DNA from: a plasmid
DNA: 53,756 bases
Direction: 5' to 3' (one strand)
Sequence record: NZ_CP033797.1
Shown: positions 10,178 through 29,942 of the stretch, piece by piece
Position numbering within the stretch: the first letter of the stretch is position 1
How the letters are laid out: each line of letters begins with the position of its first letter
Position numbers and translations under genes: made by a program
The notes under the pieces: model-generated
What the model saw: the letters and a program-made list of their open reading frames with translations, nothing else
Told to the model about the DNA's origin: nothing
Database searches by the model: none

Positions 10178-10206
10178 GGGGTCAGTTTGGATATCGAAAA
10201 TTATTG
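10178..10206 (+). repeat. Truncated Tn3-family terminal inverted repeat (first about 29 of 38 bp) abutted by IS26
   Basis: GGGGTCAGTTTGGATATCGAAAATTATTG matches the 38-bp IRs of the element at 29687..29942 (GGGGTCAGTTTGGATATAGAGAATTATTGTACGGTAAG). Confidence 0.7.
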
Positions 10207-11025
10207 GGCACTGTTGCAAAGTTAGCGATGAGGCAGCCTTTTGTCTTATTCAAAGGCCTTACATTTCAAAAACTCTGCTTACCAGGCGCATTTCGCCCAG
10301 GGGATCACCATAATAAAATGCTGAGCCCTGGCCTTTGCGTAGTGCACGCATCACCTCAATACCTTTGATGGTGGCGTAAGCCGTCTTCATGGATTTAAAT
10401 CCCAGCGTGGCGCCGATTATCCGTTTCAGTTTGCCATGATCGCATTCAATCACGTTGTTCCGGTACTTAATCTGTCGGTGTTCAACGTCAGACGGGCACC
10501 GGCCTTCGCGTTTGAGCAGAGCAAGCGCGCGACCATAGGCGGGCGCTTTATCCGTGTTGATGAATCGCGGGATCTGCCACTTCTTCACGTTGTTGAGGAT
10601 TTTACCCAGAAACCGGTATGCAGCTTTGCTGTTACGACGGGAGGAGAGATAAAAATCGACAGTGCGGCCCCGGCTGTCGACGGCCCGGTACAGATACGCC
10701 CAGCGGCCATTGACCTTCACGTAGGTTTCATCCATGTGCCACGGGCAAAGATCGGAAGGGTTACGCCAGTACCAGCGCAGCCGTTTTTCCATTTCAGGCG
10801 CATAACGCTGAACCCAGCGGTAAATCGTGGAGTGATCGACATTCACTCCGCGTTCAGCCAGCATCTCCTGCAGCTCACGGTAACTGATGCCGTATTTGCA
10901 GTACCAGCGTACGGCCCACAGAATGATGTCACGCTGAAAATGCCGGCCTTTGAATGGGTTCATGTGCAGCTCCATCAGCAAAAGGGGATGATAAGTTTAT
11001 CACCACCGACTATTTGCAACAGTGC
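10207..11025 (-). mobile_element. IS26 (IS6 family)
   Basis: Terminal IRs GGCACTGTTGCAAA at both ends, about 820 bp; encodes Tnp26. Confidence 0.95.
10259..10963 (-). CDS. tnpA: IS26 transposase Tnp26
   Basis: MNPFKGRHFQRDIILWAVRWYCKYGISYRELQEMLAERGVNVDHSTIYRWVQRYAPEMEKRLRWYW... recognised. Confidence 0.95.
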   Translation of the reverse strand: MNPFKGRHFQRDIILWAVRWYCKYGISYRELQEMLAERGVNVDHSTIYRWVQRYAPEMEKRLRWYWRNPSDLCPWHMDETYVKVNGRWAYLYRAVDSRGRTVDFYLSSRRNSKAAYRFLGKILNNVKKWQIPRFINTDKAPAYGRALALLKREGRCPSDVEHRQIKYRNNVIECDHGKLKRIIGATLGFKSMKTAYATIKGIEVMRALRKGQGSAFYYGDPLGEMRLVSRVFEM

Positions 11026-11166
11026 CCGCTCGATTACGCTGATTGCAGCTCAAGTCGGCTACGAAAGTCCTTCGGCGCTGTCTCGCGCATTTAGACGCAA
11101 GACGGGGTTGAGCCCTCGTGACTGGTTGAAAGATCTGGCGGGGGAAAATGATGGCAAAAAGGCCTA
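11026..11166 (+). pseudogene. 3' fragment of an AraC/XylS-family regulator gene truncated by IS26
   Basis: Reads ...VGYESPSALSRAFRRKTGLSPRDWLK... (second AraC HTH) starting exactly at the IS26 end. Confidence 0.65.
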
Positions 11167-11196
11167 AGGCATTACTGCCTTAAGCCATTGAAAAAA

Positions 11197-11715
11197 TTAT
11201 GCATTAATTTTACGTTTTTCCAGTTCAACCAGCGAATGGCCTGCCACAAATATCGAAACAGCAAGCAACCCTAAGTCTTTAAGCAGAAACTGACCTGGCG
11301 CAACGGAAATCGCCGGAAACCCTAAACTAGGCTCAATGACGCCCGGAGTGGAAAACATAAAGCTAAGGGTTGTGAAGAACAGGCCTGCAGACAGAGCGCC
11401 TCCTACCACGGATAGTTTGGGCGACAGCATGCGGCCTGCGATCAGAGTGCCGATCGAAATCTCTAGTATGCCGAGCAGGCTGGAGAACATGTCGACCGAA
11501 AAAATGCTATACACCCATCCCAAAAGCGGGCTGTTGCTCACCAGTGGAACCAGGCCCTCGGCCTCGTAGTGGGTAAATTTCATGCCGCCGAACCAGAAGT
11601 AAATAATAGCGAGAGCCAAGTACGCGCCATAGATACCTAGCCCCATAGTTTTGGTTCCAAGCGTTAAGTGGGCCTGTACGCTGGACTTCGAGTTTTCAAT
11701 GCCTATGGTTTTCAT
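11197..11715 (-). CDS. Inner-membrane protein, DUF417/DoxX-like (172 aa)
   Basis: Four predicted transmembrane segments; FWFGGMKF motif. Confidence 0.45.
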   Translation of the reverse strand: MKTIGIENSKSSVQAHLTLGTKTMGLGIYGAYLALAIIYFWFGGMKFTHYEAEGLVPLVSNSPLLGWVYSIFSVDMFSSLLGILEISIGTLIAGRMLSPKLSVVGGALSAGLFFTTLSFMFSTPGVIEPSLGFPAISVAPGQFLLKDLGLLAVSIFVAGHSLVELEKRKINA

Positions 11716-12445
11716 GTCTGAGCTTCCAGTAGTGAGTGAGAGTGTGTTGGCTGCCGAACGCCGTATGCGTTGGCGATGAGATTATTATGGCTGGCATCTC
11801 TAATCAAGAGGCATCAGAAAGTATTGATTTCAGTGCAGATCGTCTTGGGCGGTGCAATTCGCGATGAAGGGATCGCCGTGGAGAGCGATGAGTGCACTAT
11901 TTCGATAAAGGAGTCGTTTTACATAGGTCGATGAAGCGCGTTGCGGCATCGCCTACTGTCATTTCTCAAATCTGACTATGGGGCTTGGGGCGAAGGGCGG
12001 CACTGACTAGGCTTAGAACAGCTACCAACTAGCCGCGCGGCCGCGATGCACAAAGAATGGTAACTGAGCCGTGAGTGCGGTGGGCGCCCGCATTTATTTC
12101 CAAACCCTACAGATACATCGATCTTCGACTTCAACCGGGCAGATAGCTGTTGCAGCAAGCCTATCAATCGACTTTGACGTGTTAAAGAGGATAGGTTTTC
12201 CAGGGTTGGGGAACAGCATGCCCTGCAGAACGACACACGTCACTTTTGTTAAATTAATAAGCTAGCTACCTATTGGGCATAACCTTGCAATTTGCTTCAA
12301 TTTACGCACATGCACTTGCGACCTCAAAATGCAACGTAAGCCCCGAATATCTCCATTATTGTCGCCGCCAGCCTTAGTTACAGCTGCTATGATGAATGAG
12401 ATCGAAAACTGAAATCCCCCACTAGAATTGTTGACTGGAGTCAAA

Positions 12446-12820
12446 ATGAATAAAAAGCGGCCGGTTAATCTTGATATTCGAACCATTCAGCTTCCTCTCA
12501 CGGCGCTTACATCGATTCTGCACCGGATTTCAGGAATTATGCTCTTTATTTTTCTGGGACTGATACTGTATATGCTGAGCAAATCGTTGGAGTCAGAAAA
12601 GGGTTTTAATGAAGTCAAGGAGATTTTTTCTTCACCTTTCGGCAAAGTTAGTTTCTGGTTGGTATACTCTTCATTTATTTATCATCTCGTAGCCGGAATT
12701 CGACACCTAGTTATGGATGTGGGTGTTGGTCATACTTTGAAAGGCAGCAATCGCGCCTCTACTATTGTTTTAGTAGTGTCGGGTGTTTTAATGGTTGCTG
12801 GCGCCGTATGGATTTGGTAG
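12446..12820 (+). CDS. sdhC: Succinate dehydrogenase cytochrome b556 subunit SdhC, orphan (no sdhD/A/B follows)
   Basis: MNKKRPVNLDIRTIQLPLTALTSILHRISG...HLVAGIRHLVMD matches E. coli SdhC (MIRNVKKQRPVNLDLQTIRFPITAIASILHRVSG...HVVVGIRHMMMD). Confidence 0.8.
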   Translation: MNKKRPVNLDIRTIQLPLTALTSILHRISGIMLFIFLGLILYMLSKSLESEKGFNEVKEIFSSPFGKVSFWLVYSSFIYHLVAGIRHLVMDVGVGHTLKGSNRASTIVLVVSGVLMVAGAVWIW

Positions 12821-28473: not shown

Positions 28474-28758
28474 TTACAGTAAATGGCGTTTATGGTTCAT
28501 CTGTTGGTGCAAAATACGTGCAATCAGAATATCCGTATCACGAACCGTATAAAAAATGGCGTGTCGCTGAAATTCAATGCGCATCACACCAGAAACGGCA
28601 TGGTAGTCACGTCCCATATCTGGCATTCCGGCAAGTGTCTCGAAAAATGCCTCAAGTGCGTCTGTATAATGATCTGCCTGAGCTTCACCAAATTTCAAGA
28701 GCGTATAGTCATAAATCCCGGCGAAGTCGTCTGCTGCCCGTTCGGTGAGTTTATACAC
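28474..28758 (-). CDS. parE: ParE/RelE-family toxin
   Basis: 94 aa; overlaps the antitoxin gene by 8 nt; ...IFYTVRDTDILIARILHQQMN. Confidence 0.75.
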   Translation of the reverse strand: MYKLTERAADDFAGIYDYTLLKFGEAQADHYTDALEAFFETLAGMPDMGRDYHAVSGVMRIEFQRHAIFYTVRDTDILIARILHQQMNHKRHLL

Positions 28759-28993
28759 GATGTCTCAGCTTTCTTTTTTCTGCAATATCCCGCAGTGATA
28801 GCGAGCTTTCACCGCTTTCCAGCCCGGTAATTACTGCCTGGCGAACAACTTCATCATTTGTTTCCTGTTGCTCCAGTAATCGCAGAGCAGAACGCATAAC
28901 TTCACTCGCAGAGCCATAACGGCCACTGTCTATTAATCGACTGATAAACGAATCGAGTTGTTCGCCAATCGTAACGCTTGTTGTTCTGGCCAT
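28751..28993 (-). CDS. parD: ParD-family antitoxin
   Basis: MARTTSVTIGEQLDSFISRLIDSGRYGSASEVMRSALRLLEQ. Confidence 0.8.
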   Translation of the reverse strand: MARTTSVTIGEQLDSFISRLIDSGRYGSASEVMRSALRLLEQQETNDEVVRQAVITGLESGESSLSLRDIAEKRKLRHRV

Positions 28994-29366
28994 AACGCCC
29001 CCTGTGTTAACTATCAACACAATAATAGGAATACTTGCTCCTGGTGTCAACGAGCACACCTAACCAGATTTTGCCCCCCTCCCTGCCAGACCAAGTTTTT
29101 AGCTGACTTTTAGCGGAGAGATAGGTAAGGGCGAAAAGTGCCTTTTCGCTGTAGTGCATTCAGTTGACTCCCTGCCTCCGGGCAAAGACCGGAGGTGCTA
29201 CTTAAAGTTTGTAGGGGAGCATAGTGACCGTACCGTACCGTACCGGCGCGGCTGTTAGGCCGCTGCAAGCGGCGGTCATTATTGGTTTATCCCCGTAATC
29301 CACAGAACTTATCCAGCGAATAAATAGATCTTTAATGAAACTAAGTAGGTCGAAGACCTGATTGTT

Positions 29367-29435
29367 TTGCAGATAATTATTGGTTGATTGCAGATAACCC
29401 CATGAACCTGTTTGCAGATAATTGTGTATAAAAGA
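29367..29435. repeat. Three iteron-like repeats TTGCAGATAA(T/C) spaced about 22-25 bp apart
   Basis: ttttgcagataattattgg / gattgcagataaccccatg / gtttgcagataattgtgtat; nearby simple repeats (ACCGT)x3 at 29226 and (GGTGCA)x3 at 29490. Confidence 0.5.
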
Positions 29436-29686
29436 TATGACGTACCTATTATCACGAGTGTTATGGATGAAAGTTGATAGTTTCGGTGCAGGTGCAGGTG
29501 CAGGTTAATTATTCAGCAATACTAACCGACGGACGCGGGGATACCTCCGCAATGAAACGGATTTTAATAAGCAGGTTCTTTAGTGAGGTGGGGCAGTACC
29601 TGGTTGCTGCATGTTTACCAGCTCAAGCTGGTAAAGTTGAGTCCAGACCATTTTTTCGAACTGTTGGGGGGTTAGGTGGTGTATAT

Positions 29687-29942
29687 GGGGTCAGTTTGGA
29701 TATAGAGAATTATTGTACGGTAAGCCTGTTTTTTGAACAGGCTTACCTGTAGCAATAGGGTGTACTCCCGCGCTATACGGCATTTTCAGAGGTTTGACCT
29801 TAATCGGATAACCTAAATGCGATACTGCAAGAGCGACAACTTAAAAGCGATAGCCACTGACGCAAAATCAACCCCTTACGAACCAAGATTGGTTAAATAA
29901 TGCGCTTAACGTACAAAAATTTCCGATCTCCAAACTGACCCC
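29687..29942. mobile_element. Tn3-derived inverted-repeat miniature element (TIME-like), 256 bp, with 38-bp Tn3-family IRs ending in TAAG
   Basis: IRL GGGGTCAGTTTGGATATAGAGAATTATTGTACGGTAAG (29687..29724); IRR reverse complement GGGGTCAGTTTGGAGATCGGAAATTTTTGTACGTTAAG (29905..29942). No coding capacity between them. Confidence 0.7.

Follow-up and report, generated by a model that had tools for sequence, protein, structure and literature searches.

A MITESen1 copy and a 29-bp TnEc1-type inverted-repeat stump as probable separate Tn3-family relics at the edges of an IncX5 plasmid cargo region

In the 53,756-nucleotide plasmid sequence NZ_CP033797.1 (the window, by which the whole stretch analysed is meant), two inverted repeats (IRs) of Tn3-family type face each other across the accessory region, with their outer ends at positions 10178 and 29942. 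The question raised by this locus is whether the intervening 19.8 kb were once mobile as a single transposon. A first-pass annotation, made from the letters alone, had proposed a former IR-bounded unit, either a Tn3-family transposon or a segment mobilized by a Tn3-derived inverted-repeat miniature element (TIME), later remodelled by the insertion sequence (IS) IS26. It had also taken the DNA for an IncX plasmid, in agreement with the IncX5 typing of near-identical relatives; the window is circular, an alignment with CP056271.1 spanning its 1/53756 join. No evidence was found for 10178-29942 as a single Tn3- or TIME-mobilized unit, now or formerly. We consider it probable (roughly 0.8) that the two repeats are separate Tn3-family transposition relics at the edges of an IncX5 cargo hot-spot downstream of a resolvase gene, and that the 19.8 kb between them are a mosaic assembled stepwise.

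The right-hand repeat belongs to a 256-bp element (29687-29942) ending in 38-bp IRs of Tn3-family type (GGGG...TAAG), the same pair being returned by a repeat search. Its left (IRL) and right (IRR) arms are identical at 32/38 positions, and the coordinates, sequence and 6 mismatches given for them earlier are borne out. At the left-hand repeat, the IS26 terminal repeat GGCACTGTTGCAAA begins at 10207 with no gap after the IR; the '29 of 38' first given for this third copy is the length retained. Over the 29 kept bases it differs from IRL at 2 positions (27/29 identical) and from IRR at 3 (26/29). With up to 3 mismatches allowed, the 29-mer occurs at exactly 3 sites in the window, and 0/100 dinucleotide-preserving shuffles contained any match. 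The flanking bases, TATAT and AAGTC to the left and right of the 256-bp element and CAATA before the third IR, were re-read as first reported, again with no 5-bp duplication in either pairing (TATAT and AAGTC; CAATA and AAGTC).

The 256-bp element is MITESen1, a TIME already catalogued in ISfinder. It matches the ISfinder sequence, as printed in Table S2 of PMC13367494, at 253/256 positions, the three substitutions (nt 55, 63 and 65) being internal. The earlier reading of it as a TIME without coding capacity was correct: its length falls within the 50-500 bp that define such elements, it has no transposase gene, and among open reading frames (ORFs) of at least 100 aa only 29906-30253 on the minus strand touches it, over its last 37 bp. 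A tblastn search with the Tn3-family TnpA of Rts1 detected no TnpA homologue in the window. The only Rfam match around the element, with none inside it, was the backbone AgrB antisense sRNA at 30890-30975 (42.5 bits; gathering score 40), beside a dqlB/DinQ-like type I toxin gene of the backbone. MITESen1 is present in 2,378 PLSDB plasmids, in 737 of them at 99% identity or more, from Escherichia, Klebsiella, Citrobacter, Enterobacter and Salmonella; the copies span many replicon types and have unrelated flanks. According to the 2026 survey of the element by Gomi & Yano (PMC13367494), it was first seen on an IncX1 Salmonella plasmid (Pong & Hall 2021, Plasmid 114:102561, as cited there).

At the window copy of MITESen1 no target duplication was found (TATAT on the left, AAGTC on the right); this reflects a local rearrangement and leaves family membership unaffected. 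The copy in MN823994.1 bears the 5-bp duplication TATTA, and a 1.67-kb element with MITESen1-type ends in the IncX1 plasmid pSTY3-1898, whose IRL is 1 mismatch from that of MITESen1, bears TTTAT. Published TIME-bounded composites (TIME-COMPs) have 5-bp duplications TAATA and TATAT, and the same work reports MITESen1-bounded composites in qnrS1, floR, qnrD1 and blaNDM-1 contexts, MITESen1 copies without direct repeats, and one copy interrupted by IS26 (PMC13367494).

The left-hand repeat had been described as a third copy of the same IR. A genuine Tn3-family end cut by IS26 it is, but not a MITESen1 IR: its 29 bases are identical (29/29) to both IRs of TnEc1 (L014), of the Rts1 transposon (L013) and of a Citrobacter transposon (L015), and to judge by this identity it is an end of TnEc1-group type. 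The database search with the IR proposed in the first-pass annotation, for a cognate Tn3-family transposase, thereby points to the TnEc1 group as a candidate. A reconstructed 38-mer matched more than 5,000 PLSDB records, some of the matches overlapping a gene labelled 'Tn3 family transposase'. TnEc1, on Escherichia coli pAVS0947-D (CP124464.1), is a 3,854-bp tnpR-tnpA element with two perfectly identical 38-bp IRs, and PGAP labels its transposase 'TnEc1 family'. The transposon of Rts1 (NC_003905.1; L013 5877-12777) measures 6,901 bp, is bounded by TnEc1-type IRs that agree at 37/38 positions, and carries the formaldehyde-detoxification operon frmR-frmA-VOC-fghA together with tnpR and a 995-aa tnpA. 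At 80% coverage or more, 560 PLSDB records contain the tnpR-tnpA module of this transposon, whose flanks in Rts1, ATTAA and ATGAA, are alike at 4/5 positions.

No other part of the Rts1 or TnEc1 transposons was found in the window beyond this IR: the TnEc1-group tnpA and tnpR with res between them are absent, and in a tblastn search the Rts1 TnpR matched the backbone recombinase only, at 44%. The third IR is no element but a relic, and since its inner 9 bp are lost and no element lies behind it, the 29-bp stump is most likely inert. Tn5403, which is present in the IncX5 relative CP037738.1, was considered as a helper and rejected, its IR (GGGGTCGGTTCCGGCTGAGGGCGAAATGACACCCTAAG) being clearly different.

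Both outer IRs are, on comparison with relatives, genuine insertion ends, because relatives have exact empty sites at both points. The left IR lies 61 bp downstream of the stop codon of a short recombinase allele, which in IncX5 relatives is the 'recombinase family protein' WP_024262784.1 and shares 44% identity with the Rts1 transposon's TnpR. Typical IncX5 plasmids have an exact empty site here, ...TTCAATA^CGACAC (...GATTGTTCAATA^CGACACTAAGG...), and run uninterrupted through it (...GATTGTTCA(A/G)TA^CGACACTAAGG...); the right-hand side expected at this site, CGACACTAAGG..., has 0 matches in the window. On the right, a 35-kb cargo-free IncX5 plasmid of Serratia entomophila (L004) aligns to 1938-10083 and then straight to 29943-30735 (its own positions 8149-8922), with an intact 323-aa recombinase gene crossing the joint. 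Its empty site, ...CAGATG^AAGTCGCG, lies inside the long recombinase allele and is abutted exactly by the MITESen1 IRR in the window, from which the 5' part of this allele is missing. The comparison with IncX relatives, also proposed at the outset, has in this way yielded one exact empty site for each outer end, in different backbone variants. The two target sites belong to separate loci, each with its own recombinase allele, and are contiguous in no relative.

These sites also bear on a reading in which the repeats are no transposon ends at all but conserved IncX backbone sequence, for instance a res or partition site. Their position lends it some appeal, as they adjoin the backbone resolvase gene and elements with these ends also lie just downstream of the resolvase gene in IncX1. 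The empty sites and the duplications refute it, and neither IR is ordinary backbone: IncX5 relatives lack the repeats at exactly these points, the same 256-bp element recurs with unrelated flanks in the many replicon types counted above, copies with 5-bp duplications exist, and the 38-bp sequence bounds tnpA-tnpR transposons. We give this reading practically no credence.

The first-pass proposal itself was that a TnEc1-type IR at 10178 and the MITESen1 IRR at 29942 bounded one composite, TIME-COMP-like or a large Tn3-family transposon, that transposed into the IncX5 backbone before IS26 remodelled it. In its favour, the IRs are inverted relative to each other, backbone colinearity breaks off exactly at both outer ends, published MITESen1-bounded composites include some that lack direct repeats (PMC13367494, Fig. 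S4 text), and one transposase might use related IRs with 3/38 differences. However, there is no complete TIME or 38-bp IR at both ends, the left end being truncated to 29 bp, of a different IR type and with no TIME body behind it. No 5-bp direct repeats surround 10178-29942 (CAATA against AAGTC), and the flanks come from two loci in different backbone variants rather than from one empty site, with the inner-side sequence expected for each absent from the window. No PLSDB record covers 80% or more of 8000-32000, and the interval was accordingly not met in another context there. The left junction occurs in many plasmids with different cargo, among those examined, and the right junction in only one. 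Finally, 2.9 kb of backbone-type DNA (recombinase fragment, parA, parG and parDE) lie inside the interval and adjoin MITESen1 in other plasmid types too. With no positive evidence for it, we regard such a former unit as very improbable.

The interval 10178-29942 is instead a mosaic built stepwise, backbone-type DNA included (Table 1). IS26, which is annotated in relatives with the identical IR-IS26 junction, has cut short both its neighbours, the IR to the left and an AraC-family gene to the right; its flanks AATTATTG and CGCTCGAT differ, so that there is no 8-bp duplication. The following 14.9 kb are 99.5-100% identical to segments of Pseudomonas plasmids and are found near-identical in Aeromonas and Klebsiella plasmids as well; the ISPa60-type and IstB proteins encoded there have Pfam matches. 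The second IS6-family element differs from IS26 and interrupts a recombinase gene on its right. Its 231-aa ORF (25997-26692, minus strand) matches Pfam DDE_Tnp_IS240 at 9.5e-45, and no target duplication was found at this element. The two IS6-family elements together bracket the Pseudomonas-type segment. The segment from 26756 to MITESen1 has counterparts, at 92-95% identity, in the recombinase-parA-parG and parDE regions of CP056271.1 (IncX5), Rouxiella pSP1 and Klebsiella michiganensis CP056138.1, and by this similarity is backbone-type DNA and not transposon cargo. Its non-coding part next to MITESen1 holds three copies of TTGCAGATAA and one (GCAGGT)3 run, and the homologous region of Rouxiella pSP1 adjoins a repA gene; it may be a leftover origin or iteron region.

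Table 1. Features at and between the outer inverted repeats of the window, with the recombinase alleles on either side
Feature	Coordinates	Strand	Description
Backbone serine recombinase (resolvase), short allele	9451-10116	+	Complete; NCBIfam serine recombinase matches
Third IR copy (stump)	10178-10206	+	GGGGTCAGTTTGGATATCGAAAATTATTG; outer 29 bp kept of a 38-bp TnEc1-group Tn3-family terminal IR, outer end at 10178; inner 9 bp and remainder of element gone
IS26	10207-11026	-	820 bp; 14-bp terminal repeats GGCACTGTTGCAAA at 10207 and 11013-11026; transposase ORF 10259-10981 (-)
14.9-kb cargo	11027-25944		AraC 3' end, DUF417, oxidoreductases, CorA, GST, msrA/msrB, ISPa60, IS21-type istB
Second IS6-family IS	25945-26755	-	About 811 bp; terminal repeat GGTTCTGTCGCATTAA at 25945, inverted copy ending at 26755
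Plasmid-maintenance module	26756-29686		3' part of second long recombinase allele (to 27305), parA, parG, parE/parD
parA	27456-28076		Pfam ParA
parD	28751-29059	-	Pfam ParD
Non-coding stretch	29060-29686		627 bp, between parD and MITESen1
MITESen1	29687-29942	+	256-bp TIME; 253/256 to the ISfinder MITESen1 sequence
IRL of MITESen1	29687-29724		GGGGTCAGTTTGGATATAGAGAATTATTGTACGGTAAG
Putative res remnant in MITESen1 interior	29728-29852	-	Collinear with the tnpR-tnpA intergenic (res) region of TnEc1-group transposons
IRR of MITESen1	29905-29942	reverse complement	GGGGTCAGTTTGGAGATCGGAAATTTTTGTACGTTAAG
Orphan 3' end of long (323-aa type) recombinase allele	29943-30290	+	115 codons and stop; cut exactly at MITESen1 IRR

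The two borders of this region behave differently among relatives. The junction of the 29-bp IR with IS26 is found in at least 25 IncX5 plasmids, with different cargo following it in the relatives examined, and is inherited. On the right, 24/25 of the best backbone relatives become homologous no more than 10 bp from the MITESen1 IRL, so that MITESen1 usually forms the right border of the IncX5 cargo region; the DNA beside IRL is different in each typical IncX5 plasmid examined. In typical IncX5 plasmids the MITESen1 IRR is joined 417 bp further right, at TAAAA (30360), and hence they are without 29943-30359; the TAAAA site is unoccupied in the window. The point at which IRL joins the parDE module also shifts, from 29686 in the window to 29396 in CP056271.1 and 29203 in CP056138.1. 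Both MITESen1 junctions of the window are shared with only one PLSDB plasmid, CP109691.1, which has the same context without 12360-27433. As a further observation on these IRs, IS110-family elements lie inside MITESen1 IRs and in one TnEc1-type IR, always after nt 32 (...TTGTAC^TATAAGG; CP056138.1 at 9926 and 12912, CP056271.1 at 37585 and 40376). These insertions look like IR-specific targeting, by analogy with that of IS4321/IS5075 on Tn21-type IRs.

Elements of this IR family account for four separate insertions at or after the 3' end of the IncX recombinase gene, all within about 0.4 kb: at CAATA (10178), at AAGTC (29943), at the TAAAA (30360) of typical IncX5 plasmids, and, for the 1.67-kb IncX1 element, at TTTAT (L018 2653-4324). 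Four such nearby insertions suggest a local insertion hot-spot. The stop codon of each recombinase allele is followed by a module some 110-125 bp long, with inverted repeats of 13-15 bp (GTTACAAC...GTTGTAAC) at its borders; it is whole at 30288-30412, and its left half is present at 10114-10177. Folded as DNA, the whole module scores z = -4.2 against shuffles, and two of the IR insertions fall within such modules.

Three recombinase alleles are present in the window, one complete (9451-10116) and two as 3' fragments (26756-27305 and 29943-30290), which suggests that related plasmids have recombined or formed cointegrates more than once at the recombinase locus. In a specific version, the MITESen1 joint would be what survives of a cointegrate between two IncX-type plasmids. 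It would have MITESen1 transpose replicatively from a parDE-carrying donor into the IncX5 long recombinase gene at AAGTC, the cointegrate staying unresolved for want of a cognate resolvase; recombination between the backbone duplicates and IS26/IS6 deletions would then have shrunk it, the alternative being homologous recombination between pre-existing MITESen1 copies. This version would account for a single MITESen1 whose left flank (the parDE module) and right flank (3' recombinase) derive from different backbones without a duplication, as well as for the remnants of three recombinase alleles. Neither TnpR nor TnpA of TnEc1 type is encoded in the window, and the region upstream of the backbone resolvase has no similarity to the MITESen1 interior, which also speaks for this version. 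However, the reciprocal junction (5' long recombinase...AAGTC joined to MITESen1 IRL) is absent from PLSDB, the three partial matches being IncX1 plasmids with a different insertion; homologous recombination between two 256-bp copies yields the same product, and the nested junctions could equally stem from independent insertions. We hold the cointegrate version to be rather unlikely.

For the two separate relics, the following history is proposed. MITESen1 is non-autonomous: it has two 38-bp ends that a TnpA can recognise and what looks like a res remnant, but no genes. It would move only where a Tn3-family transposase is provided in trans, transposing replicatively and duplicating 5 bp of its target. 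An element with a TnEc1-group IR would have inserted at CAATA, 61 bp past the resolvase stop, and IS26 would later have deleted all but 29 bp of it. Between the IRs, IS26, the 14.9-kb Pseudomonas-type segment, the second IS6-family IS and part of the recombinase-parA-parG-parDE maintenance region of another plasmid would have been added stepwise. MITESen1 could have come to join two backbone variants either through a MITESen1-mediated cointegrate that was unresolved or partly deleted, or through homologous recombination between MITESen1 copies, with adjacent deletions thereafter.

Several points weigh against this history. A chimeric query of PLSDB returned empty sites only, with neither an intact element at the CAATA site nor the predicted right-end junction; an exact-pattern scan of the GTDB representative genomes gave neither the intact left junction at the CAATA site nor the right-end junction, and a scan of JGI metagenomes for the intact left junction at that site gave none. 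Nor was any PLSDB plasmid found with MITESen1 in the long recombinase gene bearing an AAGTC duplication. Since no intermediates were found, the order of events is inferred only; it would be fixed by a junction CCCC+CAATA+CGACACTAAGG, by ...CAGATGAAGTC joined directly to GGGGTCAGTTTGG, or by MITESen1 joined to TATAT beside parDE-side sequence. Intramolecular replicative transposition erases target duplications, so that an old IR-bounded unit could have lost them. The identical 29 bp are also carried by an Edwardsiella element that has no transposase gene, and 29 bp of sequence, which would fit an autonomous transposon or another TIME, cannot decide which of the two was lost at 10178. The interior similarity used below to assign a helper is moderate (about 52-59% over 141 aligned columns), and that assignment comes from sequence alone.

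The likeliest helper and parent of MITESen1 would be the TnEc1 group of tnpR-tnpA transposons, common in enterobacterial plasmids, because each MITESen1 arm matches the TnEc1-group IR at 35/38 positions and the interior shares a res-like region with it. The putative res remnant is 125 bp long and collinear with the Rts1 transposon; in its core (29808-29852; 45 bp, 78% identity) the spacing of the ATGCGATA/AAGCGATA motifs is kept. Local alignment of the MITESen1 interior gave a score of 40, compared with 16.2 ± 2.3 (maximum 26) for shuffles, and three TnEc1-group transposons scored 10-13 standard deviations above shuffles; in the opposite orientation only background scores were obtained. The 2026 survey had compared MITESen1 only with the res sites of Tn3, Tn21 and Tn1721, with no similarity (PMC13367494). 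An action of the backbone resolvase on MITESen1 is not supported: the region upstream of its gene (9133-9492) resembles the MITESen1 interior and the TnEc1-group res at background level only.

We tentatively suggest, at somewhat less than even odds, that MITESen1 may be a deletion derivative of the TnEc1 group that kept both IRs and the parental res, and that it may be moved and resolved by the TnEc1-group TnpA, possibly with TnpR, of co-resident plasmids. Because insertions of this IR family recur near the 3' end of the IncX resolvase gene, within about 0.4 kb, MITESen1 would in this proposal form a fixed right border where IncX5 plasmids swap or trim cargo. The Edwardsiella element mentioned above (L009 6001-9425; Edwardsiella tarda pET-RE-04-1) is about 3.4 kb long, with a TnEc1-type left IR, PAAR-domain and hypothetical genes, and a right end that shares 85% identity with the rightmost 150 bp of MITESen1; it may be a cargo-bearing, non-autonomous relative of MITESen1.

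Compared with known systems, the window copy of MITESen1 has the same length and the same 38-bp IRs as the reference and likewise sits in an IncX plasmid near the resolvase region, as in the first IncX1 plasmids. MITESen1 in general is often without flanking direct repeats and beside IS26, as here; the window copy differs in that it has no target duplication, joins two backbone variants and is a single copy outside any MITESen1-MITESen1 composite. In TIME-COMPs (Szuplewska et al. 2014, PMC4133298; PMC13367494), Tn3-type IRs in inverted orientation bracket cargo, as in the window, and pECC-003-1 is a published precedent for IS26 interrupting a bounding TIME. However, TIME-COMPs end in a TIME on both sides and, when they have evidently transposed, are flanked by 5-bp direct repeats, whereas the window has a 29-bp stump of the other IR type, no direct repeats and two target sites. 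TnEc1-group transposons share their IRs with the stump (29/29) and with each MITESen1 IR (35/38), but the window lacks their tnpA and tnpR and keeps only the outer 29 bp of one end. The pairs IS101/gamma-delta and TIME244/Tn21 are TIMEs retaining the res of their parent; MITESen1 appears alike, with two IRs and a parental res, and would likewise need the TnpA of its parent and possibly TnpR, although, unlike in those two pairs, its res assignment comes from sequence comparison.

The finding falls wholly within categories already described, namely MITESen1, TIME-bounded composites and the truncation of transposon ends by IS26, and has little weight as a discovery. Its practical value is in annotation: the borders of the IncX5 resistance/cargo region are a MITESen1 copy and a 29-bp TnEc1-type IR stump, both of which gene-based annotation misses. 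The candidate helper transposon and the possible res site concern points left open for MITESen1 by the 2026 TIME survey (PMC13367494), and would be a modest, testable addition, for which a direct mobilization experiment is easy to design.

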